From NCBI GenBank assembly GCA_964364715.1, contig CAYING010000004.1:4376-64343 (forward strand): a stretch of DNA of 59,968 nt. The letters are read 5' to 3'. Below the pieces are notes generated by a model. The model was given only the letters and a program-made list of their open reading frames with translations, ran no database searches and had not been told where the DNA came from. Of the stretch, positions 3,890 through 37,870 are shown in pieces (positions within the stretch are counted from its first letter, which is position 1; every line of letters starts with the position of its first letter). Source of the DNA: an uncultured Planctomycetales bacterium. GTDB lineage: Bacteria; Omnitrophota; Gorgyraeia; Zapsychrales; GWA2-47-8. Made by a program: the position numbers and the translations under genes.

Positions 3890-5059
3890 ATGGCGCAGAA
3901 AGTATTAAGTGTTGAGGAGAAAACAAAATTCAAGGTCCCATTCGGGACTGTTTCCATCACGCCGGAAGCGCGTAGACTTATCGACGAGGCTTTGGATAAG
4001 AAACTCGTCACGCGCGGTAAATTGGTTGAAGAGTTTGAGAAGAAATTTGCCAAGCTGTTCGGGGTGAAATATGCGGCCGCGGTCAGCAGCGGCACTGATG
4101 CGGATGCGTTGGCTTGTGCGGTTCTCTATGATTACGGCGCTAAACGCGGGGACGAGATCATTATTCCGGCATTGACCTTTGTGGCGACGGGGAACGCGGT
4201 CCTGCAGGCAGGTTTTACACCGGTTTTTGTGGACGTTAACCGCGAAACGCTTAATATTGATCCGGATAAAATTGAGCAGGCCATCACCCCAAAAACACGC
4301 GGCATCATGCCGGTGCATTTGATGGGAAAGCCGGCTGAGATGGATAAGATCATGGCCATCGCCAAGAAGCATAAACTTTATGTGATCGAAGACGCCGCTG
4401 AAGCGCACGGCGCGGAATATAAAGGGAAATTGATCGGATCGATCGGCCATATGGCGGCGTTCAGCTTATATGCCGCGCACATTGTCACGACAATCGAGGG
4501 CGGGATCGTGATCACCAATGACGCGAAGATGGCGGAAGCGCTGCGCTCGCTGCGCAATCACGGGATCGTCGGGAAATTTGAATTCCGCCGGATCGGATTT
4601 TCCGCCAAAATGAACGAAATTGAGGCCGCCGTTGGGATCGGCAATATTGCGATTTTTCAAAAGATTCTCGATAAGCGCCGTCGGAATTTGCTTTATCTGA
4701 TCGATAAATTCAAGAAATTCGAAAAATATTTCATTACGATCAAGGAAGAAAAGGGCGAGAAGATCGGCCCGCACGCGTTTTCGATTATCGTCCGCGAAAA
4801 GGCCGGGTTCACCAAAGACGAATTTGTTTCCTTTATCGAAACTAACGGCGTTGATTCCAGAAATCTTTTTTATTCCATCCCGACGCAATGCCCGAGCTAT
4901 GCGTTTTTAAATAAGAAATTGGGTGATTTCCCCGAAGCCGAATATTGCAGCAACAACGGGACGCATATCGGTGTCCATCAGGACATTGAGCTCGAACAGA
5001 TGGGCCATATCGCCCAGGTCGTCGAGAAATTCCTGAAATCCAGAAGTCTGCGGATCTGA
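3890..5059 (+). CDS. DegT/DnrJ/EryC1/StrS-family PLP enzyme with His at the Schiff-base Lys position (ColD/E1-like dehydratase candidate)
   Basis: SSGTDA, IEDAAEAHG and FSLYAAHIVTTIEGG, with H where aminotransferases have K. Confidence 0.8.
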   Translation: MAQKVLSVEEKTKFKVPFGTVSITPEARRLIDEALDKKLVTRGKLVEEFEKKFAKLFGVKYAAAVSSGTDADALACAVLYDYGAKRGDEIIIPALTFVATGNAVLQAGFTPVFVDVNRETLNIDPDKIEQAITPKTRGIMPVHLMGKPAEMDKIMAIAKKHKLYVIEDAAEAHGAEYKGKLIGSIGHMAAFSLYAAHIVTTIEGGIVITNDAKMAEALRSLRNHGIVGKFEFRRIGFSAKMNEIEAAVGIGNIAIFQKILDKRRRNLLYLIDKFKKFEKYFITIKEEKGEKIGPHAFSIIVREKAGFTKDEFVSFIETNGVDSRNLFYSIPTQCPSYAFLNKKLGDFPEAEYCSNNGTHIGVHQDIELEQMGHIAQVVEKFLKSRSLRI

Positions 5060-5067
5060 TCCCGTCT

Positions 5068-6177
5068 ATGCGAGTGGCCATTAATTGCCGATCGTTCTTG
5101 AAGAAACAAAACACCGGGATCGGCCGTTACTCCTATCAGCTCATCCGGCATTTAAGTCAGATCGATTCCGTTAATCAATACACCCTCTATGCCCCGAAGT
5201 GGTTTTGGGACAGAAAGAGAGTTGCTCCCAAGGCGCCTGCGCCAAATTTCAGCATTCAATCCGATCCCTTTATGCAGGGCGCGCATAATGTTTTGAAGGG
5301 AATTGATATTTATCATACCCCGACGCCGGAGATCGTAACGATGAAGGATGCGAAGATCGTGGTGACGGTGCATGACCTGATCCATAAGGCGTATCCGCAA
5401 GGACATACGCCGGAAACGATCCGCCTGACGGAAGAATGCCTGCAATCCAGCCTTGCCAAGGCAGATTGTGTGATCTGCATTTCAAACAGTACGAAGGAAG
5501 ATCTTGTTAAATATTATCCGGTCGCTTCGGATAAAATCAAAGTTATTTATATGGGCGTTGACCGTGAGGTTTTTTACGAACTTTCCTCAAGCGAAAAGCA
5601 GGCGGCCCAAAGTGTGGTTTGCTCCAAAGGAATCGACGGGAAATATGTCCTGTTCATCGGGACGATCGAACCGAGGAAGAATCTTTCCAATCTCTTGAAG
5701 GCCTTGTCGATCCTCAAGCGCAAGACCGGGTCCATTCCCAAGTTGGTGGTGATCGGGATGAAAGGTTGGATGCACGAAGACTTGGCACGGTTGATCAAAG
5801 AATTGGATTTAAAAGACGATATTGCCTTTTTGGGATTTTTGACGGATGATGAGTTAAGATGTTTTTACAGCCTGGCGGAAGTTTTTGTGTTCCCTTCGTA
5901 TTATGAAGGGTTTGGCTTTCCGATCGTGGAGGCGTTCAGCTGCGGCGCGCCGGTCGTGACGTCGAATGTTTCCTCCTGCGCGGAGATCGCCGGGGAAGCG
6001 GCCCTGCAGGTCGCTCCTGACTCGGAGGCAGAGATCGCCGATGCGATAAGAAGACTTTTGGAAGACCCTGATCTTCGGAATACCCTGAAAGCTAAAGGAC
6101 TTGCCCGGGCAAAAGATTTTTCATTTACGAAAACAGCACAGGAAACTTTAAATATTTATCAACAACTTTATCGATAG
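5068..6177 (+). CDS. GT4 (group 1) glycosyltransferase, mannosyltransferase-like
   Basis: TGIGRY, TVHDL, GTIEPRKN and FVFPSYYEGFGFPIVEAF (EX7E). Confidence 0.9.
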   Translation: MRVAINCRSFLKKQNTGIGRYSYQLIRHLSQIDSVNQYTLYAPKWFWDRKRVAPKAPAPNFSIQSDPFMQGAHNVLKGIDIYHTPTPEIVTMKDAKIVVTVHDLIHKAYPQGHTPETIRLTEECLQSSLAKADCVICISNSTKEDLVKYYPVASDKIKVIYMGVDREVFYELSSSEKQAAQSVVCSKGIDGKYVLFIGTIEPRKNLSNLLKALSILKRKTGSIPKLVVIGMKGWMHEDLARLIKELDLKDDIAFLGFLTDDELRCFYSLAEVFVFPSYYEGFGFPIVEAFSCGAPVVTSNVSSCAEIAGEAALQVAPDSEAEIADAIRRLLEDPDLRNTLKAKGLARAKDFSFTKTAQETLNIYQQLYR

Positions 6178-6186
6178 GGATCCTCT

Positions 6187-7248
6187 ATGGCAAAAGATAA
6201 AAATTTATACGCGGTCATTTTGGCGGGAGGGGCCGGGACAAGGTTCTGGCCTTTGAGCCGCCGCTCTCAGCCGAAACAGTTTTTGAATATCCATGGAGAG
6301 AAATCGCTTTTTCAACAGACTTTGCTGCGCCTGCGCCCTAAAATTGACGGCACGAATATTATTATTGTTACTAATAAGGCATATACGGATAAGATCCGTC
6401 AACAGATCAAGGGTTTTAAGATCCCTCCGGGCAATATTTTACCGGAACCGGAAGGAAAGAACACTGCCCCTGCCGTTTGTTGGGCCGCTTCGGTCATCCA
6501 CCAGCGAAATCCGAAAGCCGTGATGGCGGTTCTGCCGTCGGACCATTTGATCACACAACCGCGGGAATACTTATCAACTCTTCAAAAAGCAGTCGATCTG
6601 GCCCAAACGCAGCATCTGGTCGTTTTTGGGATAACTCCCAGCCGCCCGGAGACCGGGTATGGGTATTTTAAAACTCACAGTATTTTAGAAGGTAAAAGGT
6701 CTGTTCTGAAGGTCATCAAGTTCATTGAAAAACCGTCGTTCGACCGGGCGATGAAATTTCTTCAGGAAGGGAATTATTATTGGAACAGCGGGATGTTTGT
6801 TTGGAAGACTGAGGTCATCCTAAGCGAATTAAAACGATACCAGCCTGCGATCTACGAGCTGTTGTCAGTAAAGAATTTAGCGAAGATCAAGAATGTTTGG
6901 AAGAAATTGCCGTCCATCTCGATCGATTGTGCGATCCTTGAGAAATCGCACAGGGTCGCAGCCGTGGCAGCTAAAAACATCGGATGGTCGGATGTGGGGA
7001 GCTGGCAGTCGTTGGCCGAAGTTTCAGAAAGGGATGAACGGAAAAATATTTTTAAAGGCGATGTTTTGGATATCGGCAGTCAAAATACATTTGTTTGGTC
7101 ATCAGCCCGATTAGTCGCGACAGTCGGACTTCAGGACATGGTCATTGTGGATACGCCTGACGCCCTTTTAGTCTGCCGGATGGACCAATGCCAAAAAGTT
7201 AAGGAGATCGTCGGTCTGTTGAACAAAGGAAAACGTAAAGAGGTTTAG
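6187..7248 (+). CDS. manC: Mannose-1-phosphate guanylyltransferase
   Basis: ILAGGAGTRFWPLSR, PKQF, EPEGKNTAPA, PSDH, ETGYGY, WNSGMF and WSDVGSW. Confidence 0.92.
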   Translation: MAKDKNLYAVILAGGAGTRFWPLSRRSQPKQFLNIHGEKSLFQQTLLRLRPKIDGTNIIIVTNKAYTDKIRQQIKGFKIPPGNILPEPEGKNTAPAVCWAASVIHQRNPKAVMAVLPSDHLITQPREYLSTLQKAVDLAQTQHLVVFGITPSRPETGYGYFKTHSILEGKRSVLKVIKFIEKPSFDRAMKFLQEGNYYWNSGMFVWKTEVILSELKRYQPAIYELLSVKNLAKIKNVWKKLPSISIDCAILEKSHRVAAVAAKNIGWSDVGSWQSLAEVSERDERKNIFKGDVLDIGSQNTFVWSSARLVATVGLQDMVIVDTPDALLVCRMDQCQKVKEIVGLLNKGKRKEV

Positions 7249-8562: not shown

Positions 8563-10143
8563 ATGGCAAAAGTTCTGATGATCAACCCGGTGATCAGGGA
8601 AGAAGACGACCCAAAGCATATTCCGTACGGCATAAGCCAGCTGGCCGGGATCGCTTTGAAGAAAGGGCATTTCGTTCAGATCTACGATGAGAACGCTTGG
8701 CGTAAGGGGCCCGAGGTCATGACGCAGGTCTGCAGGGCAGATGATTGGGATGTTGTGGCGATCGGCGGCCTTTCGACGACGTACGGTTCCGTGAAAAGAA
8801 CTTTAAAGATCATCCGCGGCTGCTGTCCTAAGGCTTTGATCATCGCCGGCGGCGGATTTCTGACGAGTATGCCGCGGGAGATGATGACCTGGCTGCCGGA
8901 GATCGACCTAGGGATCATCGGGGAAGCTTATGTGACTTGGCCGGAAGTCCTGGAAAAGATCACCGCTAAGGATTTTGATTTTTCGGAAACGCTGGGTGTT
9001 TGCTATCGCGCCAAAGACCGTACCCCTGTTCTCAATAATGTCCGGCCGAATATTAAAGACCTCGACGTTCTCCCGCACCCTGCCTGGGATCTGTTACCTT
9101 TAGAGATTTATTTTAAGAATTCACGCTTGCTGTACAGCGAATCAGCCTATATGTCGAAACGCCGGATCGATATTGGCGGAAGTTTGGGCTGCGGGCTCGT
9201 GTGCAAATTTTGCTGGCACTTGGGTACGACCGGTGACATGGTGATCGAAAAGGATGAAGAAGGGAACAACGATGTCCGTTTTTCATACGGGCGCAACATC
9301 CGTTACCATAGCCCGCGGTATATCGTGGATATGGTCAAAACGCTTGTTAAAAAATACAATGTCGATTTTATCAATTTTATCGATGAGAATTTAATGACCA
9401 TGGACGTTTCCAGTGGGCGAAGCTGGCTTAAAGATCTGTGCGATCTGTGGATCAAGGAAGGCCTCCAGCCGACGTCCCGGAGGGACAGCGTCCCAGATGA
9501 ACAGAATACGGGCGGGGTTTTTTGGTCAGGAACCAGCCATGCCAGTTTAGCGAAAAAAGAAACGTTGGATATTATGTACCGGGCGGGTTGTTCCCATTTG
9601 GTCTATGGGATCGAATCCTTTGATCCGTATATCCTGAAGCACTTGGGAAAAGGTGTAACCCAGAAGCATAATGTGGAAGCGTTGAAGATCTGTATGAATT
9701 CCGGCATCATGCCTTTGCCGAACATCATTATTGGGTTTCCCGATGAAAGTTTTCAAAGCATCCGTACAACGATAGAGTGGCTGATCAAATTAGGTATCCA
9801 TTGCAAACCCCATTTTGCCACTCCGTATCCGGGTTCGGAATGGTATTACGCCTACAAAGATTCAATTATGGAGCAGTATAACGGCAATCTTGAAGCGTTC
9901 ATTGAGTCGTTAGGGGATGCCTCCAAGATCACAGCAGTCATTTCCCATAAATTTTCACCTCTGCAGCTTTTGGGGCTGCAGCAGATCGTAATGCAGAGGG
10001 ATCTCCGACTTCTGGATCTGGCAGAGAAACATTGGGGCAATGCGGACGCCTTGATTAAACCCTTGGCTGTTCCAAAAATTTCGTTCAATATGATTAATAA
10101 GAAGGTCAAAGCCCCTGTCGAAGAGGTCAGCAAACCTATTTAA
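8563..10143 (+). CDS. B12-binding-domain radical SAM protein
   Basis: VLMINP...PYGI...IAGGG...GEA B12-binding domain, GCGLVCKFC, FIDEN, YGIES and TPYPGSEWY. Confidence 0.9.
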   Translation: MAKVLMINPVIREEDDPKHIPYGISQLAGIALKKGHFVQIYDENAWRKGPEVMTQVCRADDWDVVAIGGLSTTYGSVKRTLKIIRGCCPKALIIAGGGFLTSMPREMMTWLPEIDLGIIGEAYVTWPEVLEKITAKDFDFSETLGVCYRAKDRTPVLNNVRPNIKDLDVLPHPAWDLLPLEIYFKNSRLLYSESAYMSKRRIDIGGSLGCGLVCKFCWHLGTTGDMVIEKDEEGNNDVRFSYGRNIRYHSPRYIVDMVKTLVKKYNVDFINFIDENLMTMDVSSGRSWLKDLCDLWIKEGLQPTSRRDSVPDEQNTGGVFWSGTSHASLAKKETLDIMYRAGCSHLVYGIESFDPYILKHLGKGVTQKHNVEALKICMNSGIMPLPNIIIGFPDESFQSIRTTIEWLIKLGIHCKPHFATPYPGSEWYYAYKDSIMEQYNGNLEAFIESLGDASKITAVISHKFSPLQLLGLQQIVMQRDLRLLDLAEKHWGNADALIKPLAVPKISFNMINKKVKAPVEEVSKPI

Positions 10144-26870: not shown

Positions 26871-26898
26871 TTGACTTTAAGCTTTAAATCAACATAAT
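26871..26898 (+). promoter_or_regulatory. Putative sigma70 promoter of the B12 riboswitch leader
   Basis: TTGACT-N16-CATAAT, about 40 nt upstream of the aptamer. Confidence 0.55.
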
Positions 26899-27168: not shown

Positions 27169-27210
27169 ACTCCCAATCGTCCGCCTCAGGCGGAGGTTGG
27201 GAGTTTTTTT
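27169..27210 (+). terminator. Riboswitch expression-platform terminator (attenuator)
   Basis: ACTCCCAA-TC-GTCCGCC-TCA-GGCGGA-GG-TTGGGAGT followed by a T-run, between the aptamer and the first gene. Confidence 0.88.
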
Positions 27211-27246
27211 ATTTGCCTACCATAATTTCAGAGAAGGCAAATAGAT

Positions 27247-27340
27247 ACCCCGCAAAGCGGGGTTTATTTTAGAAGGCCTAAATTTATGGAGCGAAGCGAA
27301 CATAAATCATAGGCACGAAATAATCCCGCGCAGCGGGATT
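27247..27340. repeat. Cluster of GC-rich triloop palindromes (REP-like)
   Basis: ACCCCGC-AAA-GCGGGGT, CCTAAATTTATG..CATAAATCATAGG and AATCCCGC-GCA-GCGGGATT. Confidence 0.6.
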
Positions 27341-27348
27341 GGCGAAAT

Positions 27349-30300
27349 ATGGTATCAAGGCAGAAAAAAAATTTTATCACCATCGGTTTAGGCGTGCTGC
27401 TGATCGCCGGCGCAGCCGCGGTGATCATGTCCAATGCGAGGGAAGACGGACTTTCGCCGAAGTGGGTGCAGCCGATCTTGGATAATCCGCTCATCCGTCT
27501 GACCGCGATCAAAAGTCCGGTTTATGCGCTGGAAGATCAAGCTGATTCAGAATTGAATTCAGACTCATCCGAAAAGGCAGGCAAGAGCGGTCTTCCTCAA
27601 GCGTCTTCCCGTCAAGGCCGCGTTGCCGATCCGCTCTCCGGCAGCAATTCTGCGCCCCCGCAAGCCGGAAAAAAGCAAAATAAGAACGGTAACGCGCCGG
27701 AAGACCAGGAAAAAGATTACGGGAATAAAAATTCGCAGGGAGCGTATGCGCGTGATTTGCCGGCGGGATTGGTGGACCAAGAATACTGCCGGTATCTTAA
27801 TCCGCAATGGGGAAGGGCGCCGTATCAATGGCAGCGTGCCGGAGGAAATTCTCCCACGGGAATTAATCTGGATACAGCCAGCGGTTATTTTTGCGGGACG
27901 CCGAGGGCGGCGGGCGTTTTTGCGTTCGATATTAAAATCAGCGATGGTTCCAGAAATTTTATCACGGTCCGTTACAATCTGGCCGTTGCCGCGTTCCTGC
28001 CGCCGGAAAGCTCGGGACCATTTAATATTACCACGGAGCGTATTCCGGGCGGTTTAGTGGGGGCCGATTACTTGATACAGTTTTCCACGACCGGCGGAGC
28101 GCTGCCGCATTCCTGGAATATTTCCTTTATCCCGCCGGGTTTAAATTTTGAATCTCGCTACGGGATGCTTTATGGAATTCCGCTGAGCGAAGGCCGGTAT
28201 TCTTTTAATGTGAGTGTGAGAGATGGGCACTCCATCCCGGCCGGTAAAGCTTTTGTTTTGCCGGTTCAAACGTCGCCTTTGTATGTCACGACCGGTTCGT
28301 TGGCGGCGGGAACCGTGGGCCGAAATTATTTTGAACAACTGCGCGCGCAGGGAGGAAGGCCGCCTTACAGCTGGCAGGTGATCGCGGGGATTATTCCGGC
28401 CGGATTGACCTTTAACAGCCTGGGAATTCTGACTGGAACGGCGTTGAATGCCGAGGCGCAGACGTTACGTTTTCAGGTGACTGATCGCGACGACAGTTCT
28501 GACAGTGTTGAATTAAGACTCAACGTTGTTAGCGGAGTTTTAAAGATTGATTCTGAGAATTTGACCGCGGGCGCCGTCGGTGTTCTCTATTATACGCAAT
28601 TATTGGCCAGCGGGGGTGTGCCGCCGTATCAATGGCAGATTTTAGCGGGTCAGCTGCCCGATGGATTGAATTTTCAAAATTCGGGAGTGATTTTAGGAAC
28701 ACCGGCGCAGTCGGGAGATTTTCCTTTGCAAGTGGAAGCGGCCGATCAAACCAACAGCCGCATACAAAAAAATTTAAATGTGCGGATCAATGCCTCGCCG
28801 TTACAAATCACCACTTTCAGCTTGCCCGACGCGCATGTGGCCATTGAGTATTTTCAGCAGCTGCAAGCCCAGGGGGGAAATCCTCCTTATCACTGGCAGC
28901 TTCAGTCGGGTCAATTACCCGTCGGGATATCGCTCAGCCCGGCCGGGGTCCTCTTTGGAACACCGCAGAATACGGCGGTGGAATCTTTTACCATGCTTGT
29001 TACAGACAGTCAGGAGCACTCGGATTCCGAGCCGTATACTTTGGTGGTCAATACCGAAACATTAACCGTATTAACCGATATTTTGCCCACGGCGCGTTTG
29101 ACGCAAAATTATCAACATCAGTTACAAGCTCAGGGCGGAGTCCCGCCTTATACCTGGATAATCACGTCGGGAAATCTCCCGCGGAACTTAATTTTTGTTC
29201 CGGATGGCACTCTGTCCGGAGCGCCGGAACAAACCGGGATTTTTCCTTTTAACGTCCAAGTGACCGATGCGCAAAATCATTTAGGAACAAAAATGCTGCA
29301 CCTGGATGTTATTGAACGAGATTTAACCATCACGACGACGGCGTTTCCGGATGCCACTGTGGGAGTTCCTTATAATTTGCAAGTCAACGCCGAGGGGGGA
29401 ATTTCTCCTTATGAATGGTCGATTGTCAGCGGCGGACTTCCCAACGGATTATTGCTGGACAGCAACAGCGGTATTATTTCGGGAACATCGGCGCAAGCGG
29501 GGAATTTTCCGATTTCATTGATGGTCACGGATACACTGAATAATGAATATCCGCGCGCGTTTACTTTGCGCGTGCTCGGCGCGCCGCTTTTGCTGACAAC
29601 GGTCGCTCTTTCCGGCGCGCAAGTCGCGGTCCCTTATCAAGATACTTTAACCGCGCAGGGCGGAACTCCGCCTTATATCTGGACGATTATTCCCGGAAAT
29701 CTTCCGATAGGATTAGGTTTAGATGCCAACCGCGGCATAATCAGCGGAACTCCGACGCTGGTGCAAACCGCGGCGTTTACCGTCCGGGTGGAAGATCAAG
29801 AGCAGAATCAGGATGTAAAACTTTTGAGCATCCGCGTTGATCCGCAGCCGTTGACTATTACCACTCAGAGTTTGCCCAATGGAGAAGTGGGGATTAATTA
29901 TAATTTTCTTTTAGCGGCCAGCGGAGGAAATCCGCCGTATGCCTGGCAGATCACGCAGGGACAACTTCCTGCGGGATTGCTTTTCGACGGCCAAACCGCT
30001 GCGATTTCCGGAACGCCCACGGCGGCCGTCACGAATCTGGCCTTGACGTTTAGGGCGACGGATGCGGCGAATAATTTTACGACGAGGAATCTGAATTTAA
30101 CCATTGATCCGGCGGGGCTGGGGCCGGTGACCGGATTCATCGCTCAAGCGTCAAATCAAAAGGCCGGTTTAGCCTGGGTCAATCCTTCCTCACCGCAATT
30201 TCATCACGCGCTGATTGTCCGTAACACGACGGGATTCCCGCAAACGCCGAATGACGGCACGGTTGTTTATTCCGGAACCGGAAATAATATGGTGGATGCC

Positions 30301-31122
30301 AATTTGGCGAATGACTCAACCGTTTATTACCGGGCCTTTGCCTATGATCAGGCGAATAATGTTGTTCCTCCCGGAACCAGCGGCCAGGGTTTGGCGGCAC
30401 CGCATGCGGTAACACTCAGCGGGCCGAATGATCCGTTTGCCGATGAGGTTATGAGTTTTACTCCTTTGAATCCCGGCAATTGTTTTGGGCTGGCTAATAT
30501 GCCGAATGTCGTGTTGGGCCCGCCGCGCGGCGCCGGGGAGTACGCGGGGTCGCTGGATGTTGTTTCTTTTCATGCCAAGGTCAACAACGATAGCGGAGCC
30601 GCGGCCCCGTACGGGGGGAGTGTTGTTTTAAAATTTAACAACAATATTGTCGTCAATGGCCCGGGGGTGGATTTTACAATTTTTGAGAACGCGCTTCATG
30701 CCTTCAGTACAACGAATTATTTTATCGAACCGGCGGTCGTGGATGTCAGTTATGACGGGGTGAATTTTTACCGTTTCCCGTTTGATTTTGTTCCGCACTA
30801 TACTCCGCAAAATCAATTGGATCTGCAGAATCCTTTTGCCTATCCCACCGGCTTTGCCGGGGTTAAACCGGTTTTAAGCAATAATTTGGTCCCTGACCCG
30901 ACGGACCCGGCGGTGTCGGGCGGTGACTCATTTGACTTGAATAATATTTCGCCCAATTTAACCTGGATCCAATATGTCCGGATTACCTCGACGGGAGATA
31001 ATTGGCTGCAGGATATGAACGGCGATTTTGTCCGGCACACGCATGGAAGTCCGACGTGGGGAGCAAGCGGGACGGGGAATTCGGGATTTGATTTAGATGC
31101 CGTTGCGGCGGTGAACTATTAA
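27349..31122 (+). CDS. Large surface protein: N-terminal membrane anchor, 9 putative-Ig (He_PIG-like) repeats, FN3-like domain and C-terminal BtuH-like domain; candidate cobalamin-capture protein
   Basis: Hydrophobic IGLGVLLIAGAAAVIM, nine ~88-aa repeats (GGxPPYxW..GxLPxGL...GTP), VTGFIAQ..LAWVNP..YYRAFAYD, and a C-terminal domain DPFADEV..DFTIFEN..EPA..GGDSFDL..GFDLDAV. First gene after the B12 riboswitch. Confidence 0.75.
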   Translation: MVSRQKKNFITIGLGVLLIAGAAAVIMSNAREDGLSPKWVQPILDNPLIRLTAIKSPVYALEDQADSELNSDSSEKAGKSGLPQASSRQGRVADPLSGSNSAPPQAGKKQNKNGNAPEDQEKDYGNKNSQGAYARDLPAGLVDQEYCRYLNPQWGRAPYQWQRAGGNSPTGINLDTASGYFCGTPRAAGVFAFDIKISDGSRNFITVRYNLAVAAFLPPESSGPFNITTERIPGGLVGADYLIQFSTTGGALPHSWNISFIPPGLNFESRYGMLYGIPLSEGRYSFNVSVRDGHSIPAGKAFVLPVQTSPLYVTTGSLAAGTVGRNYFEQLRAQGGRPPYSWQVIAGIIPAGLTFNSLGILTGTALNAEAQTLRFQVTDRDDSSDSVELRLNVVSGVLKIDSENLTAGAVGVLYYTQLLASGGVPPYQWQILAGQLPDGLNFQNSGVILGTPAQSGDFPLQVEAADQTNSRIQKNLNVRINASPLQITTFSLPDAHVAIEYFQQLQAQGGNPPYHWQLQSGQLPVGISLSPAGVLFGTPQNTAVESFTMLVTDSQEHSDSEPYTLVVNTETLTVLTDILPTARLTQNYQHQLQAQGGVPPYTWIITSGNLPRNLIFVPDGTLSGAPEQTGIFPFNVQVTDAQNHLGTKMLHLDVIERDLTITTTAFPDATVGVPYNLQVNAEGGISPYEWSIVSGGLPNGLLLDSNSGIISGTSAQAGNFPISLMVTDTLNNEYPRAFTLRVLGAPLLLTTVALSGAQVAVPYQDTLTAQGGTPPYIWTIIPGNLPIGLGLDANRGIISGTPTLVQTAAFTVRVEDQEQNQDVKLLSIRVDPQPLTITTQSLPNGEVGINYNFLLAASGGNPPYAWQITQGQLPAGLLFDGQTAAISGTPTAAVTNLALTFRATDAANNFTTRNLNLTIDPAGLGPVTGFIAQASNQKAGLAWVNPSSPQFHHALIVRNTTGFPQTPNDGTVVYSGTGNNMVDANLANDSTVYYRAFAYDQANNVVPPGTSGQGLAAPHAVTLSGPNDPFADEVMSFTPLNPGNCFGLANMPNVVLGPPRGAGEYAGSLDVVSFHAKVNNDSGAAAPYGGSVVLKFNNNIVVNGPGVDFTIFENALHAFSTTNYFIEPAVVDVSYDGVNFYRFPFDFVPHYTPQNQLDLQNPFAYPTGFAGVKPVLSNNLVPDPTDPAVSGGDSFDLNNISPNLTWIQYVRITSTGDNWLQDMNGDFVRHTHGSPTWGASGTGNSGFDLDAVAAVNY

Positions 31123-31135
31123 GGAAGGAAGAATT

Positions 31136-32068
31136 ATGAGTCAGAAAAAAAGAAATTATTTATTTTTTGAAATAATCTTTTTTGCCGTGTTGATGGTGAG
31201 TGCCGGCAACGCTCAAGAAAATGCGCAATTGTGGGTTACTAAAGATTTTTCACAAGAGACTCTCGTGAATAAAACCGTCAGCGTTAACGACGATTCGGTG
31301 ATGAGCATTTTGAACAATAACGCCCGGCTGGATACGGCCTTCGGCGGCGGTTTTGTCACCGGCATTAATGGGATTTTGTCGGATAGCGTTAACGGCGAAC
31401 AGAAAGATTGGTTTTATTATGTGAATGGTTTGTTGGCCAACGTCGGAGCTCTGCAATATTTTCCCAAGGCGGGAGACAACGTGTGGTGGGATTATCATCG
31501 TTGGAATGATGCCGTCTATGTCGCAGCGGTGATTGGCGCTTACCCGCAGCCGTTTTTAAGTGGAATCTCGGGAAAGGTTGAGCCGACGATCATTATTGTT
31601 TCCCCCCGGCTCATCGATACCGCCCGGGCGTTACAGCAAAGTTTAAAGGATCAAAACATCGCCGTGGTGGATGTCGCTGAATACACACCCCAAGCGGTGC
31701 AGGATAATCAATCTTATCGAATTCTCATCGGCGCATGGGCGGATTTAGAAAATGATCCGCAGATTAAAGATATCGTGAAAAATTCCCATAAGTCCGGATT
31801 CTTTATTCGATTCGACGGCGATGGGCTGCATCCGCTGGATATGTCGGGGAATCCTGCGCAGGCGTTTAAAAATGCGGCGGCGATTCTGGCCATCGGCGGC
31901 GGGTTTGCTCAAATCCCTCCTCGGTGGATCGTCACCGGCACCAGCGACGAGGAAGTGAAGAAGGCAGTGGACTTATTGATTTCGCACAGTGAACGTATTC
32001 AGTTTTATTCCGGCGCTGTTGTCGCCGGCAATGAGGTTGTGAATGTCCCGGTTATCGGTAAAAAATAA
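31136..32068 (+). CDS. Secreted DUF4430 (transcobalamin C-terminal-like) domain protein, probable cobalamin binder
   Basis: Sec-type signal peptide (..VSAGNA|Q) and GGGFVTGINGI..DWFYYVNG..VGA..Y..GDNVWWDY. Directly upstream of ecfT. Confidence 0.8.
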   Translation: MSQKKRNYLFFEIIFFAVLMVSAGNAQENAQLWVTKDFSQETLVNKTVSVNDDSVMSILNNNARLDTAFGGGFVTGINGILSDSVNGEQKDWFYYVNGLLANVGALQYFPKAGDNVWWDYHRWNDAVYVAAVIGAYPQPFLSGISGKVEPTIIIVSPRLIDTARALQQSLKDQNIAVVDVAEYTPQAVQDNQSYRILIGAWADLENDPQIKDIVKNSHKSGFFIRFDGDGLHPLDMSGNPAQAFKNAAAILAIGGGFAQIPPRWIVTGTSDEEVKKAVDLLISHSERIQFYSGAVVAGNEVVNVPVIGKK

Positions 32069-32963
32069 TAGTTTTTTGGAAAACATGCACACCGGCGTGT
32101 TGATTTTTTATTTTGTCACGCTGCTGGCGCTGTCGATGATTTATACCAATCTTCTCTATCTTTTTTTCCTTTTTGGGATGGTCGCCTTGGGCATTTGTTC
32201 CTGCGGTAAGGTCAAGGAATGGAGGCGCACGCTCCGCTTTGGTTTGGTCATGATCCTTTTTATTATTCTGATCAACATTCTGGTTTCGCGCGCCGGGCAG
32301 ACGATTCTTTGGGAGGGGCCAAAACTGCCGGTTTTTGGAAAATTATCCATTTCGCAAGAGGCGATAATCTTTGGTTTTACCATGGCGTTTAAATTGAGCC
32401 TTATCCTCAGCATTTTTTGCTGGTATGAAGCAGTCCTGCCGATTGATAAAACATTTTCTTTTTTTTCACGATGGGCCTCTAAATCAACCCTGGTGATGAT
32501 TCTCACCGCCATGTTAATCCCGCAGCTTAAGCGGCGTTTACACGACGCGGCCTGGGCCATGCAGGCGCGCGGGTATGAATTGCAGCCGGGCCGTTTAGGG
32601 AAAACGATTCGGCAAAGTTCGCCTATCCTGAAAATTATTCTGCTTTCGGCGCTGGAAGATTCGTGGCAGATTGCCGAGGCGCTTGAAGCCCGCGCTTTTG
32701 GCGCCGGGGCAAGAACATATTATTGCCGCACTATTTGGCGGCGGCGCGATACCTTGACGCTGTTTGTCCTGGGATTAATTTGGGCAAGTTTTTCAATGGG
32801 CCTTTTACAGCACAAAGGGTTTTGGGATTTTTATCCACAAACAGAATTTGTCTTTGACGCGGCAGATAGGAAACTAATTTCCGGGATATGTGCAGGTTTT
32901 TCAGTGATACCGTTTTTAAATGAATTGGGGAAACGATGGAATTATTTAAAATTCATCATCTGA
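32043..32963 (+). CDS. ecfT: ECF transporter transmembrane T component (CbrV-like)
   Basis: Multiple TM helices and two conserved Ala-Arg-Gly-type motifs (AMQARG, ALEARAFG). Confidence 0.9.
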   Translation: MSRLSVKNNSFLENMHTGVLIFYFVTLLALSMIYTNLLYLFFLFGMVALGICSCGKVKEWRRTLRFGLVMILFIILINILVSRAGQTILWEGPKLPVFGKLSISQEAIIFGFTMAFKLSLILSIFCWYEAVLPIDKTFSFFSRWASKSTLVMILTAMLIPQLKRRLHDAAWAMQARGYELQPGRLGKTIRQSSPILKIILLSALEDSWQIAEALEARAFGAGARTYYCRTIWRRRDTLTLFVLGLIWASFSMGLLQHKGFWDFYPQTEFVFDAADRKLISGICAGFSVIPFLNELGKRWNYLKFII

Positions 32964-34576
32964 CGTATTCTTATCCCGGGCAGAAGCAGGAAGCGTTAAA
33001 AGATATTTCCCTCACTATTCGGGAAGGGGAGTTTATTCTTTTAACCGGGCCGTCGGGAGGAGGGAAAACGACCCTCGCGCGTTTTTTGGGTGGTTTTATT
33101 CCTGAATTTTACGGCGGTTCGATTAAGGGGGAAGTTCATTTTCGGAATGAATCTATGTTTGAGCGTGATCATCGTAAAATTCGCCAAAGCATCGGCATGG
33201 TTTTTCAAGATCCGGAAAAGCAAATTATTATGAGCGAGGTGGAGCGGGACTTGGCGTTGGGTTTGGAAAATTTAGGCATTGAAAATTCTTTAATGAACCG
33301 CCGCGTTATCGAAACACTTCATTATCTTGGATTGATGCATTTGCGCAATCGTATGACTTCGGAATTATCATCGGGCGAAAAGCAAAAAGTGGCGATTGGT
33401 TCTATTTTGGCGATGCTGCCGCATATTTTGATTCTCGATGAGCCGACGTCGCAATTGGACCCGCTGGCCGCGAAAGAAATTTTCGAGATTTTACGCCGTT
33501 TAAACCGTGAACATGGGTTTACGATTATTCTCATCGAGCAGCGGTTGGAAGAATGTCTGGCCCTGGCCGGCCGGGTGATTATGCTCAGCGACGGCCGTAT
33601 CGTGGCTGATGAAAATCCGAAAGAATTTGCCGCTAAAGTTTTTGCCGAATACGAAGAATTGCTGCCGGTGATTCCGCGGTTGTTTTGTCGGCTCAAGGAA
33701 AAAGAGATTCCGCTAACGGTGGCTGAGGCCCGGCCGCAAATTCTTAAGGGAAGTTGGAAAGAAAATATTGCTCAACGGCAAAAAGAAAATAGCGTCAGCT
33801 CCTCGCCGCTTATTGAGATAAAAAATTTGAGTTTTTCTTATCAGCAAGACAATGTTCCGATCATTGAAAATTTAAATTGTTCTTTTGAGGAAGGCAGATT
33901 GGTTGCGATCCTCGGAGAAAATGGGGCCGGGAAAAGTACATTACTCAAACTTTTAGCCGGCCTGTTGCAGCCTTCGTACGGCAAGATTTTATTTGCGGGA
34001 AAAGATGTTTCCCTCCTTAGTATTAAAGAACGGGCCCAAAGAATTGCTTATCTGTCACAAAATCCCAGCGACTATTTATTTAATGAAACGGTGGAAGATG
34101 AGTTGTTGTTCACCATGAAAAATTTGGACATGAATTTCGATGAAAATACGATAACGCAAATGTTAAGCGAACTTAGCATCGGTCATCATCGCCGTCATTA
34201 TCCTCGAGACTTGAGCGCCGGAGAAAGGCAGCGGGCGGCGCTGGCCTCCATTTTAGTGGCGCAGCCGCGGGTCTTGATATTAGATGAACCCACGCGCGGC
34301 CTTGACGGTTCTCTCAAGCGAAAATTAGGTGAGTTGTTTAAACAGCTTCAGCAGCAAAAGAAAACCGCTATACTTTTGGTCACGCAGGATGTGGAATTTA
34401 CGGCCAATTATGCGGATCAAATTATTTTATTTTCTCAGGGAAAAATTGTAGACCAGGGGCAGCCAGAGCAGATACTGGACGGAAATCTTTTTTATTCTAC
34501 TGCGATCAATCGAATGTTCCGCGGCGTTGTCAATAACGTCATTAATTTAAAACACGCTGAGGCCTTGTTAAGATGA
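32936..34576 (+). CDS. ecfA: ECF transporter fused A-A' ATPase (CbrU-like)
   Basis: Two ABC domains: GPSGGGKT/VFQDPEKQ/LSSGEKQ/LDEPTSQLDP and GENGAGKS/QNP/LSAGERQ/LDEPTRGLD. Confidence 0.92.
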   Translation: MELFKIHHLTYSYPGQKQEALKDISLTIREGEFILLTGPSGGGKTTLARFLGGFIPEFYGGSIKGEVHFRNESMFERDHRKIRQSIGMVFQDPEKQIIMSEVERDLALGLENLGIENSLMNRRVIETLHYLGLMHLRNRMTSELSSGEKQKVAIGSILAMLPHILILDEPTSQLDPLAAKEIFEILRRLNREHGFTIILIEQRLEECLALAGRVIMLSDGRIVADENPKEFAAKVFAEYEELLPVIPRLFCRLKEKEIPLTVAEARPQILKGSWKENIAQRQKENSVSSSPLIEIKNLSFSYQQDNVPIIENLNCSFEEGRLVAILGENGAGKSTLLKLLAGLLQPSYGKILFAGKDVSLLSIKERAQRIAYLSQNPSDYLFNETVEDELLFTMKNLDMNFDENTITQMLSELSIGHHRRHYPRDLSAGERQRAALASILVAQPRVLILDEPTRGLDGSLKRKLGELFKQLQQQKKTAILLVTQDVEFTANYADQIILFSQGKIVDQGQPEQILDGNLFYSTAINRMFRGVVNNVINLKHAEALLR

Positions 34577-35253
34577 TGGTCGATAAAGGGTTATTATTTT
34601 TTGCGGGAGCAGCAATCTTTATGGGAGGGTATTTGCTATTTTTTGAGCGCAAAGCGGTTTCGAGTAAAGAGATTGTCTTGATTTCTGTTTTAGCCGCGAT
34701 GGCTGCGTTAGGGCGAGTCCCTTTTGCGGTTATTCCCGGCGCTCAACCCACAACTTTTATGATCATCATCAGCGGTTATATTTTTGGCCCTATGGTTGGT
34801 TTTATCGTCGGTATTGCAGCCCCGCTGGTTTCGAATATTTTCTTGGGGCAAGGGCCGTGGACGATTGTGCAGATGTTTACCTGGGGACTGTGCGGTATTT
34901 CGGCAGGATTCTTAGGGAAAATTTATCCCCATGCCCCGCGGTGGTTATTGATCGTTTTTGGTTTTTTCTGGGGATATCTTTTTGGCTGGATTATGAATGT
35001 CTGGTACTGGCTGTCGTTTATTTACCCGTTGAATTTCAAGACGTGGATTTATACTTATGCGGCTTCGTTTTGGTTTGACACGGTTCATGCGGTTACCAAT
35101 TTTATTTTCTTTTATTTCTTGGGAAGCGATTTTATCGTTATTCTGCGGCGGTTTAAACAAAAGTTAAGTTATTCGCATCAAAAAGTTTTTTTTAAATCAC
35201 CAGCCCCGCCTTTGGCGGAGCGGAGAGGAGTTGAAGATGAAATGTTTTATTAA
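34573..35253 (+). CDS. cbrT: ECF transporter S component, CbrT-like (cobalamin)
   Basis: FFERK..KEIVLISVLAAMAALGRVPFA.IPGAQP, VSNIFLGQGPWT..QM..WG and FD..HAVTN. In an operon under a B12 riboswitch. Confidence 0.8.
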   Translation: MMVDKGLLFFAGAAIFMGGYLLFFERKAVSSKEIVLISVLAAMAALGRVPFAVIPGAQPTTFMIIISGYIFGPMVGFIVGIAAPLVSNIFLGQGPWTIVQMFTWGLCGISAGFLGKIYPHAPRWLLIVFGFFWGYLFGWIMNVWYWLSFIYPLNFKTWIYTYAASFWFDTVHAVTNFIFFYFLGSDFIVILRRFKQKLSYSHQKVFFKSPAPPLAERRGVEDEMFY

Positions 35254-37870
35254 GCAATCAGTTTTGATTTTGGGATTTTTGGGCATGGGGATTCTCTCGA
35301 ATATCCCGGAGGCCGCTGCGGTTAATCTCACCGTCAAAACAGGGTATGCCGATCAACAATCCACCGTGAATGCCGACGGCGGTTTTGATTATCTGCCTAA
35401 CGGCGATGTTGTTATTATTCGTAATGGTATTGCTCTAACGCCGTTCATTTATATTGTTGATGCCAACGGAGATAATGTCCCGGCTGCGCCGCAGCTCATC
35501 GGCAGTATGCCTTCCGGAACGTTTAGTTCCTTTATTAAAGTTTCCCCAAACGGAACTTTTGCGGTTTTTGGGGCGACCGGATCGACAAACCCGATCAGCA
35601 AAATTAATCTATCAACTTTTGCGATCACAAATATTACCAGCATTAGCGGAAACCAAAGCCTTGCTTTTCTCAGCAACAACGAGGTTTTAATCAGTTACAA
35701 TGCCAGTTTTAGCCCTGCTTCCCCCAATCAAATTGCGTACCTTCAATTAAGTAATCCAAGCTCTCAACGGGTTCTTGCCGATATTGCCAATACTCCTTCC
35801 GGCCCCATTGCTCTCAAGGGAGGAAATCTTTATTATGTTAAAAGTACTTGGGCATTTCCGGCTCCGCCGAACAGCCATCGCCTTTTAAAGTTTCCCAAGG
35901 CAAAAATGGATCAGGCTTTATCAACGGGAATTATTTTGCGCGAGTCTGACGCGCAATTGATTACCACTCTCGACGGCGGATATGAGCTGGCGGTGAATGA
36001 ATTTAGCGATATTCTTGTCACGGATTTGAGCGGCAGAGTTTTTAAAGTCAATGAGTTGACCGGCGCGAAGGAGAACTTTTGTATAACTCAGAATTTTCCC
36101 AATGACGGGAGTTTCACACACCTCACATTTTATAAACGTAACCGGTTTTTTAATCCTTTTGAAAAATCAGAGTCGAAATTAGGAACACTTTTTGCGGATA
36201 TTACTTACAGTAATTTCACTTTAGTTCAATTAAGCCCGGTGGTTTCTGATCCATGGGCCGATAATATTATATCGTTTCAGCCGGGGCAGGGCGGGAGCGC
36301 GAATGCTGCCTTGGCTTTAGGGGCGCCCATCGGGGGCGGAACAGCCGTTCCCAATAACAGTTCTCTAGTTTTATTAGGCGATCGGGATAATCCAACGACG
36401 GCCAGTCCGGCAGCGTTGACACTTGGTTTTAATAATTCTATTCGAGATAATGCTCAAGATCTCTATGGCCTGGATTTCACGGCTTTTGGGAATTCATTTT
36501 GGGCTGGAGGAAACTCCCAGAATCGTTTTGCCGAACCGGCTATTATGGAAGTCAGCGCCGATCTCAATCACAACGGCCTGCCCGATGATGAATGGTTTAT
36601 GATTAATCCGAATACTTTACCGGCGAACTTAGGGCCGGCTAATCCGGTGCAATATAACACGCTGACCTTACGCGGTTACGCGGATTATTCTCCGACGCTG
36701 ATTTTGGGCGATACGGATGGAAATAATATTGTTAATAATCCCAATATGCCGCCGGAAGATTTTTATACGGTTCCGGACCGATTATGTGTGCCAGGCGATG
36801 CCCAAAGTTATCTGGTGGACAATAATTCCGGCGGCGGGGATTCGGCTGATATTCGGGATGGTGTGGTGCAAACTTCACCCGGTGTTCCGTTGGTTGATTT
36901 TGCCGGCCGCAATCGGTTTGTTCATCTTGATCGAGTTGATTTTGTCCGGCTGCGCGATGCCCGTAACAGCGATATTTATACGGGGATCGGTTTATCAGCG
37001 GCGGATATTGATGCGGTGGCCGCGACCAAACCCAAATTGCGCGGCACTACCACGACGGTGAGTAACGTGAGCCAGCTGATAGCAGCTTTAGCGGCCGCTG
37101 TCCCAGGGGATGAAGTTATTATGAACCCGGGAGTTTATCCGGTTACCGCGGCGCTGGTCGTTCCTCGCGGCGTCAGTTTAAAAGGAAATGCCGGTTTATG
37201 GACTCCGGATGATCCCAGCGATGACACTGTTATCCGTGGCGCCGGCCTTCCTTTAGGAGCACCGGCGATCAGCCTTTCCGATCCAGCCGGAACATTTTCC
37301 TATGAGCAGGGCTATGAAATTTCCGGAATTCATTTTGAAAAACTCGCCATCGGCATTCAGATCGATCGTCTCTATCCGGCGATTCAGTATAATTTTTTCA
37401 AAACCGCTTCGCAGTCGGTTGTGATCACGAATGCCTCCGCCAATAAAACCGTTATCCGTTACAATGTTTTTGGCGATGTCCGTCAGCGCCCTTCGATCGG
37501 CATTGACGCGGATAACAGCAAATTAGTCATCGTTCATAACACATTCGTCAATCATTCGGCGGCAGCGGCTTTTTTTCGAAATAATACGGCGGAAGGTTAT
37601 TTGAGAGATAATATTTTTTATGGTAATCAACTTGGTGTCTCCGCCGCCAACAGCGGATATGTTTATGGGCATTACAATGATTTCTTTAGAAATGGGATCA
37701 AGGCTAATCTCTCGGCGAGCGGTCTCATGGAAAATGATGTTTTATCTAAACCTTCTTTTGCGGCGGAGAAAGAAGGTGATTACCGCCTCCAAGTTAATTC
37801 ACCGGTACGCACTCTGGGCATGGGAGGGGCTGACCCGGGTGTTTACGATGGACCGAATTTTTATCCATAA
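35237..37870 (+). CDS. Large secreted protein: beta-rich (propeller-like) N-domain, central BtuH-like domain, C-terminal right-handed beta-helix
   Basis: Signal peptide (..PEAAA|V) and RBS GAGGAG. Central DPWADNIISF..DFTAFGNSF..EPAIMEVSADLNHNGLPDDEWF..GYAD..GGGDSADI..VDFVRL..DIDAV. C-terminal PGDEVIMNPGVY, Asn-ladder repeats and DYRLQ..SP. Confidence 0.65.
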   Translation: MKCFIKQSVLILGFLGMGILSNIPEAAAVNLTVKTGYADQQSTVNADGGFDYLPNGDVVIIRNGIALTPFIYIVDANGDNVPAAPQLIGSMPSGTFSSFIKVSPNGTFAVFGATGSTNPISKINLSTFAITNITSISGNQSLAFLSNNEVLISYNASFSPASPNQIAYLQLSNPSSQRVLADIANTPSGPIALKGGNLYYVKSTWAFPAPPNSHRLLKFPKAKMDQALSTGIILRESDAQLITTLDGGYELAVNEFSDILVTDLSGRVFKVNELTGAKENFCITQNFPNDGSFTHLTFYKRNRFFNPFEKSESKLGTLFADITYSNFTLVQLSPVVSDPWADNIISFQPGQGGSANAALALGAPIGGGTAVPNNSSLVLLGDRDNPTTASPAALTLGFNNSIRDNAQDLYGLDFTAFGNSFWAGGNSQNRFAEPAIMEVSADLNHNGLPDDEWFMINPNTLPANLGPANPVQYNTLTLRGYADYSPTLILGDTDGNNIVNNPNMPPEDFYTVPDRLCVPGDAQSYLVDNNSGGGDSADIRDGVVQTSPGVPLVDFAGRNRFVHLDRVDFVRLRDARNSDIYTGIGLSAADIDAVAATKPKLRGTTTTVSNVSQLIAALAAAVPGDEVIMNPGVYPVTAALVVPRGVSLKGNAGLWTPDDPSDDTVIRGAGLPLGAPAISLSDPAGTFSYEQGYEISGIHFEKLAIGIQIDRLYPAIQYNFFKTASQSVVITNASANKTVIRYNVFGDVRQRPSIGIDADNSKLVIVHNTFVNHSAAAAFFRNNTAEGYLRDNIFYGNQLGVSAANSGYVYGHYNDFFRNGIKANLSASGLMENDVLSKPSFAAEKEGDYRLQVNSPVRTLGMGGADPGVYDGPNFYP

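Follow-up and report, generated by a model that had tools for sequence, protein, structure and literature searches.

Our analysis of a 59,968-nucleotide stretch of contig CAYING010000004.1 from an uncultured bacterium of the Omnitrophota (called the window here, meaning this stretch at its full length) centered on P0001, a long stalked protein encoded behind a cobalamin riboswitch. With a probability of roughly 75%, P0001 is an exported cobamide-capture protein with a BtuH-type head that feeds an importer of the energy-coupling factor (ECF) type encoded in the same operon. What is new here is a remote BtuH-type head that is carried on a stalk of nine He_PIG domains and coupled to an ECF importer outside the Bacteroidota. 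The original prediction, made from the sequence alone, had described a stalk carrying a vitamin B12-binding head and had argued that its place as first gene after the riboswitch links the protein to B12 and not to adhesion in general. The stalked head is now supported by fold matches to BtuH domains and by a sequence profile, the head itself most likely binding cobamides, and the tie to B12 is borne out by a family-wide linkage to riboswitches and B12 import genes.

The head is a distinct C-terminal domain of 236 residues, whose C-terminal end reads GFDLDAVAAVNY. An AlphaFold (AF2) model computed from an alignment of 50 head sequences reached a mean predicted local distance difference test score (pLDDT) of 95.4 and a predicted template modelling score (pTM) of 0.92. 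The model was compared with 48,161 representative PDB chains using VIA-align; the best match was 8blw_B (residues 388-660, Z 14.2, root-mean-square deviation (rmsd) 3.5 over 173 residues) and the second 7biz_B (residues 315-593, Z 14.1, rmsd 3.6 over 169 residues), followed by a third match at Z 8.8 and, at Z 6-8.5, by a long series of CBM32, discoidin and lectin modules. Foldseek returned 8BLW and 7BIZ (three chains) as the only entries with an expect value (E) of 1e-3 or below, at E 3e-5 and 7.3e-4. Chain B of 8BLW is BtuG1 (also called BtuGH; BT1490), which consists of a propeller and a C-terminal BtuH domain (bioRxiv 10.1101/2022.11.17.516869), and this BtuH domain is the best match of the P0001 head by sequence profile as well as by structure: the profile of the 50 head sequences found 8blw_B at E 1.4e-5 and 7biz_A at E 0.028, in both cases at the beginning of the BtuH domain. 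Single-sequence phmmer with the P0001 head gave no match among PDB sequences, and because the profile does find what the single sequence misses, the relation between the head and BtuH is a remote one. Three motif blocks are common to the head family and the solved BtuH domains. Judged from the model, the C-terminal domain of P0001 is predicted to have the BtuH fold and to be a remote branch of the BtuH kind.

7BIZ is the B12-bound BtuH2 of Bacteroides thetaiotaomicron, a protein of immunoglobulin (Ig)-like PKD domains with a C-terminal B12-binding domain that was described 'with no known structural homologs' (PMC8941943); a review likewise states that the BtuH fold has no recognizable structural homologs (PMC13616437). 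The dissociation constant of BtuH2 is given as 6.4e-12 M by surface plasmon resonance (PMC8941943) and as 2.3e-8 M by stopped-flow (PMC13616437). Counting along the alignment, the B12-contacting residue Asn399 of BtuH2 falls at the position of the Asn that is invariant in the head motif DFT[IV]FEN, while Gln333 falls in a variable stretch and His476, Tyr510, Trp511 and Trp577 lie outside the part aligned by the profile.

Neither alone nor together with the adjoining connector does the P0001 head match any Pfam family at E<=10. An exhaustive HMMER search over representative clusters (50% identity) retrieved 1206 clusters at E<=1e-3, of which 514 reached E<=1e-10 and 75 reached E<=1e-30; the distinct C-terminal domain that had been proposed thus proved to be real and to belong to a large family. 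Many members are stand-alone proteins of 220-310 residues, and 165 matches fall in proteins of 691-2200 residues, with He_PIG present in 120/120 of the matches listed. Across the family the stalk differs in length, from none at all to nine domains or more. The head is the most conserved part, with motifs that are invariant across phyla; the invariant columns of its alignment are P40, G87, D89, F93, N95, E108, G172, G173 and D177 in head numbering. In the source databases the proteins are named 'putative Ig domain-containing protein' or 'hypothetical protein'. Named long homologs come from metagenome-assembled genomes (MAGs) of Omnitrophota, Aureabacteria, Kiritimatiellia, Verrucomicrobiae, Chlamydiota, Bdellovibrionota and Deltaproteobacteria, the nearest named relatives of P0001 being Omnitrophota MAGs. 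NCBIfam NF033170 (LIC_13355 family lipoprotein) was the sole curated model to match the head (E 1.2e-16, positions 53-218 of 273), and its score of 60.8 bits falls short of the cut-off (120), which excludes P0001 from that family. Identity with DUF4465/BtuJ (PF14717) was considered and rejected, as this family matched neither P0001 nor any of the 50 head-family members scanned.

In the window, the riboswitch upstream of P0001 is the single cobalamin riboswitch match in the whole 2.16-Mb genome (94% complete). The region of its expression platform folds with a free energy of -40.3 kcal/mol (z -4.4), a stability attained by 0/200 shuffled sequences, and riboswitch, hairpin and U7 run would together form a transcription-terminating OFF switch. 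No plausible gene lies between the riboswitch and P0001, where the sole open reading frame (ORF) of at least 80 residues has 82 residues and runs on the opposite strand. A second terminator-like hairpin with a T-run stands downstream of the riboswitch terminator, at 27247-27263, ahead of the P0001 start codon, and a promoter-like match (27197-27226) overlaps this part of the interval.

The genes after P0001 follow with intergenic gaps of at most 14 nucleotides or with overlaps. First comes an exported protein with DUF4430, a domain also described at the C-terminus of transcobalamin (PMC4350170); compared with PDB sequences, this operon protein had no credible match (best E 0.097). The T component, a fused ATPase and a CbrT-related S component follow, giving the operon the T, A and S components of a probable ECF-type B12 importer. 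The S component matched chain A of 6FNP, the ECF-CbrT vitamin B12 importer (PMC5997447); this chain is labelled 'Membrane protein', and we assume it to be CbrT. The last gene encodes P0002, which carries a second BtuH-like domain with 29% identity to the P0001 head and the same start and end motifs (residues 339-598, BLASTP E 4e-10). A structure model of P0002 residues 1-600 (pLDDT 87.3) found BtuG1 as the first Foldseek match in the PDB at E 1.4e-16, the next being generic propellers from E 1.1e-9 onwards. This model match and the second head copy indicate that P0002 repeats the order of BtuG1, a propeller followed by a BtuH-like domain. The P0002 propeller itself (residues 34-337) is nearest to six-bladed NHL and Pizza types (Z ~25), its homology to BtuG being possible, and a beta-helix is present in addition. 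After P0002, a gap of 199 nucleotides separates the operon from a helix-turn-helix regulator and sugar-nucleotide genes.

Whether homologous tip domains sit behind B12 riboswitches elsewhere had been suggested as a check of the original prediction, and they do so, with the riboswitch on the same strand, in 7/8 genome loci and 39/80 metagenome loci. The genome loci came from contigs of one genome per species; the eighth, riboswitch-negative locus has just 304 nucleotides of upstream DNA. Metagenome loci were collected by a pattern scan built on alignment A2 of closer sequences, the diverse alignment A1 having no stretch that was conserved enough, and the sample for this reason leans to closer relatives. 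Out of 597 pattern matches 333 encode a relative, and the best 80 of these 333 were analyzed. An upstream riboswitch on the same strand reached the Rfam gathering score in 38/80 loci (8/14, 11/15, 12/17, 7/20 and, for a batch of short contigs, 0/14). Rfam in permissive mode was applied to six negative loci and added L036 (32.7 bits), with L035 remaining sub-threshold (27.6 bits); in the DNA fetched for L032, L040, L014 and L023, no riboswitch was found even in this mode. When at least 4 kb of DNA upstream of the head was available, 32/43 metagenome loci had a riboswitch, namely 18/19 short forms and 14/24 stalked forms (at least 650 residues). The riboswitch lies within 300 nucleotides of the head gene in 10/39 positive loci, and one or two genes stand between the two in the rest. 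At gathering score, both strands of ~667 kb contained no riboswitch on the opposite strand and no other Rfam family; in permissive mode, other families were matched weakly twice (E 0.28 and 0.53), once on the opposite strand. The gathering-score scans gave a single case of a downstream riboswitch, L053, where same-strand riboswitches at 4440-4615 and 6121-6284 stand before and after the head gene, an arrangement reminiscent of the two riboswitches in operon 1 of Bacteroides.

Genes next to the head relatives were scanned with Pfam, leaving out stalk proteins above 650 residues, six near-duplicate loci and loci below 5 kb. In six loci with 57-67% head identity, all with downstream DNA fetched and scanned (L001, L013, L014, L015, L032 and L040), as in the window, DUF4430 and ECF genes follow directly 3' of the stalk gene, which argues that they belong to one pathway; in L015, DUF4430 and the ATPase were recognized and no T or S component was. 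A P0002 homolog (41% identity, 656 residues) lies upstream of the stalk gene in L014 and the end of one is seen in L040, the operon start probably lying beyond the fetched DNA in both. Other relatives are joined to importers of another kind: BtuB-like TonB receptors occur in L003, L004, L005, L007, L008, L045, L049, L058, L061, L069, L071, L073, L074, L077 and L084, BtuF, FecCD and ABC genes in L005, L067, L074, L084 and L088, and BtuR in L005. This last locus, from an 'uncultured Cytophagia bacterium' MAG, has the order riboswitch, BtuB-like gene, propeller-head fusion, BtuF, ABC, FecCD, BtuR. Its fusion (4963-6876) joins a head of the present type to a propeller that matches the BtuG1 propeller by sequence (E 2.9e-10 to 8blw_B) and ends in a type IX secretion tail; the head therefore occupies the place that the BtuH domain has in BtuG1. 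Named loci came from MAGs of Omnitrophota, Verrucomicrobiota, Deltaproteobacteria, Caldithrix and Cytophagia.

Further variants were seen among the stalked forms. In L020, L021, L022, L025 and L002 (49-52% head identity), stalked forms of ~760-820 residues are followed by an FG-GAP repeat protein, which may be another propeller partner; L002 is from a Verrucomicrobiota MAG, and the stalk gene of L025 itself is cut at the contig edge. In L034, L035, L036, L039, L041, L042, L046 and L051, stalked forms of ~705-745 residues come after a protein of 780-1140 residues. In seven loci this protein contains Calx-beta, accompanied by He_PIG in L034, L035 and L041; the one in L042 has He_PIG only. The riboswitch precedes this first gene in L034, L036, L041 and L051 and, sub-threshold, in L035. 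In L013 (1815-5711) the stalk gene is present as two ORFs, one with the He_PIG part and one with the head part, which may be a true split, a frameshift or an artifact of assembly.

The host appears to be a consumer of B12. The B12-binding domain PF02310 was matched 13 times in its genome, with 11 matches exceeding the cut-off; the frames concerned include one of 1255 residues and many of ~500 residues. CbiC and CobS were absent from the 94% complete genome, which fits an organism that uses B12 without being able to make it, a probable auxotroph. Four of the 13 matches lie within the window (~731-1087, 8611-8949, 57948-58337 and 59665 to the window end), in frames of ~500-580 residues among sugar and polysaccharide genes, which places the B12 uptake operon among likely B12-dependent enzymes. 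Omp85 proteins indicate that the host is probably diderm. Its single TonB-dependent receptor (L093:5941-8073, contig C7) is closest to FecA (E 2.4e-23) and adjoins ExbB, ExbD, TonB and an FTR1 iron permease, and with this lone receptor being FecA-like and next to an iron permease, no BtuB is evident in the genome.

We propose that at plentiful B12 the riboswitch would end transcription at the hairpin upstream of P0001, and that at scarce B12 the cell would make the stalked catcher, the DUF4430 protein, P0002 and the ECF importer with its CbrT-like S component. The nine Ig-like He_PIG domains and the connector would hold the head tens of nanometers away from the N-terminal anchor or signal sequence, and captured corrinoid would be handed to the S component, either directly or through the DUF4430 protein and P0002, and then be pumped in. 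An Ig domain is roughly 4 nm long, from which we estimate that the stalk of nine may measure ~35-40 nm if extended. It may stand either in the periplasm or on the cell surface. To our knowledge, ECF importers are generally thought to use no extracytoplasmic binding proteins. A stronger form of the proposal, which we put forward tentatively and consider unlikely as a whole, is that the ECF importer depends on an extracytoplasmic relay of stalked catcher, P0002 and DUF4430 protein, and that this relay carries B12 to the inner-membrane S component in a diderm without evident BtuB, the ~40-nm stalk spanning or passing the envelope.

Several findings weigh against P0001 as a capture protein of the importer. 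The genome points to an outer membrane (Omp85) and yet has no evident BtuB, leaving the route of B12 to an inner-membrane ECF importer unexplained. This missing BtuB would fit a protein that binds corrinoids without feeding an importer and serves instead for extracellular hoarding, as a weapon in competition or, as the original prediction had suggested, for theft from neighbor or host cells. The long stalk suggests reach past the cell's own envelope, and the literature describes BtuJ of Bacteroides as a reservoir outside the cell and still regards the function of BtuH as unknown (PMC13616437). We regard such a function as improbable, given that the stalk gene stands directly before the DUF4430 and ECF genes in the window and in all six scanned related loci and that BtuH2 is required for efficient uptake in Bacteroides (PMC8941943).

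The fold, too, leaves room for doubt, as it belongs to the wide CBM32/discoidin group of beta-sandwiches with many sugar binders at Z 7-8.8, and the head and the solved BtuH domains share only 17-20% identity, with BtuH2 itself matched just marginally by the profile (E 0.028). Moreover, the Leptospira relative LIC_13355 is published as an adhesin for laminin and plasminogen that also binds endothelial cells (PMC11891782), 10/24 loci with long stalks and 4 kb or more of upstream DNA have no riboswitch over gathering score, and L032, the closest relative (67% head identity), has none in 1.9 kb upstream, permissive mode included, and carries two unrelated genes directly upstream of its stalk gene. 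P0001 could alternatively be a general adhesin or glycan-binding fibre in which an Ig stalk bears a CBM32/discoidin-like lectin head (related to F5/8-type C and lectin domains as well) and the riboswitch position is incidental; He_PIG repeats are frequent in adhesins, and the flanking genes serve sugar and polysaccharide synthesis. We judge this quite improbable: BtuH domains match at Z 14 compared to at most 8.8 for lectin modules, the operon joins the stalk gene without gaps to an importer of the ECF-CbrT type, the association of the head family with riboswitches and B12 importers extends over many phyla, and the accessible text of the LIC_13355 paper reports no test of B12, no recognized or related domain and no link to B12 (PMC11891782).

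Of the six named B12 contacts of BtuH2, Asn399 alone could be mapped as conserved, the Gln333 region not being conserved, and BtuK2 of Bacteroides, a paralog of another relay protein, does not bind B12 (PMC13616437), so that family membership is no guarantee of binding. That the head has lost corrinoid binding and acts as a scaffold or docking module for other exported operon proteins, for which the two head copies within one operon might also speak, is nevertheless very improbable, as the head, with its motifs invariant across phyla, is the part most strongly conserved, in contrast to a stalk of variable length (zero to nine domains or more).

Cobamide capture by P0001 on behalf of the importer would resemble known systems in part. 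Like P0001, BtuH2 (BT1956, 7BIZ) is encoded in an uptake locus controlled by a B12 riboswitch and shares Asn399 with the P0001 head; the two differ in sequence (17% identity), in their stalks (nine He_PIG domains and a connector compared to three PKD domains), in the lipoprotein signal that P0001 does not have, in the importer (ECF compared to BtuB-BtuG) and in the host, which is not a member of the Bacteroidota. Unlike BtuG1, P0001 has no propeller, and no BtuB partner is found in its operon. BtuJ (DUF4465) and the BtuG and BtuK propellers of Bacteroides capture cobamides at the surface under riboswitch control, a task that P0001 would share, their folds being different from that of the P0001 head. 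ECF-CbrT of Lactobacillus delbrueckii (6FNP, PMC5997447) shares T, A and S-like parts with the present importer, to which three exported putative binders are co-encoded here. Members of the NF033170 family of Leptospira, which the head matches, are short lipoproteins published as adhesins with no B12 link. In the Gram-positive gut species Eubacterium siraeum, EUBSIR_01285 is a predicted btuH homolog (PMC8941943, PMC13616437), compared here by description only; unlike P0001, it is given no stalk of nine Ig domains in the accessible parts of these papers.

A survey of btuH homologs published in 2022 covered 313 gut genomes by BLASTX (PMC8941943). The literature naming BtuH concerned Bacteroides or Bacteroidetes only, among the matches listed, and among papers naming DUF4430, judged by titles and the beginnings of abstracts, none dealt with bacterial B12 uptake. 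The present data suggest that the BtuH way of capturing B12 is used far beyond Bacteroides, by a remote branch of the fold that has no Pfam family, comprises more than 1000 clusters at 50% identity, is tied to B12 riboswitches and occurs with BtuB-type importers in some lineages and with ECF-type ones in others. This head family offers a means of locating genes for corrinoid scavenging in bacteria that have not been cultured, and its relation to the LIC_13355 family suggests that members of the latter in Leptospira may be B12 binders. It also raises the question of how a vitamin of 1.3 kDa is supplied to an ECF importer in a diderm.

The features of the locus are collected in Table 1.

Table 1. 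Coordinates of the riboswitch region, of P0001 with its domains and of the downstream operon genes (positions within the window).
Feature	Position	Strand	Basis or remark
Sigma-70-like promoter match, TTGACT, 16 nt, CATAAT	26871..26898	+	Consensus match, 10/12 positions
Cobalamin riboswitch aptamer, RF00174	26923..27115	+	Rfam 64.6 bits, E 1e-13
Expression platform, 16-bp hairpin (27169-27204) and U7 run	27169..27211	+	Read as intrinsic terminator
P0001, stalked BtuH-like protein	27349..31122 (stop included)	+	Open ORF, 1257 residues
N-terminal hydrophobic segment, residues 9-27	27373..27429	+	Kyte-Doolittle 2.5 over 19 residues
Low-complexity linker, residues 28-127, rich in A, S, G, P, D, K	27430..27729	+	~100 residues
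Nine He_PIG Ig-like repeats, residues 128-919	27730..30105	+	Pfam He_PIG E 2.8e-81, 9 stretches
Connector module, residues 920-1021	30106..30411	+	FN3-like by language-model look-alikes, a lead
BtuH-like head, residues 1022-1257, putative cobamide-binding domain	30412..31119	+	Fold and profile match
Exported DUF4430 protein, 310 residues	31136..32068	+	Pfam E 1.1e-17; N-terminus resembles signal peptide
ECF T component, CbiQ family	32043..32963	+	Pfam CbiQ E 3.7e-10
Fused double ECF ATPase (A-A')	32936..34576	+	TIGR04520 405 bits (cut-off 315), two stretches
ECF S component, CbrT-like	34573..35253	+	Pfam ECF_trnsprt; 6fnp_A E 3e-13
P0002, 879 residues, last operon gene	35231..37870	+	Signal peptide, propeller, BtuH-like domain, NosD-type beta-helix
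Second BtuH-like domain, in P0002, residues 339-598	36245-37024	+	BLASTP E 4e-10

Upstream of the head, the layout of P0001 followed the original prediction closely. The nine repeats, which had been placed at ~27745-30110, were recovered as nine He_PIG stretches, with a score for He_PIG (PF05345) of 268.5 bits (Pfam gathering score 24). Their motif G..P[YH].W occurs at residues 155, 249, 335, 422, 509, 596, 683, 771 and 859, i.e. at a spacing of 86-94 residues, and the pairwise identity of the repeats is 23-43% (mean 34%). Tandem Repeats Finder detected no tandem repeat in the DNA of the stalk, indicating that the repeats are old and not recently duplicated. For the predicted FN3-like module, a stretch of ~100 residues is present between stalk and head, and the FN3 label has a lead in look-alikes from a language model (Atlas), which include fn3 clusters at 0.90-0.93 and do not amount to a test, with no Pfam family, PF00041 included, matching the module even at E<=10. 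The N-terminal 140 residues likewise had no Pfam match at E<=10. The predicted N-terminal membrane or signal segment and low-complexity linker were both confirmed. Residues 9-27 are the only strongly hydrophobic stretch of P0001, are preceded by a basic n-region and may serve either as a signal anchor or as the h-region of a signal peptide; the sequence is compatible with an S-N-A cleavage site after residue 30. There is no Cys in or after this segment, and for this reason P0001 has no lipobox of the kind that marks a surface lipoprotein. Most long homologs of P0001 also have one hydrophobic N-terminal segment, and the homolog P0023 carries a lipobox-like LALSC.

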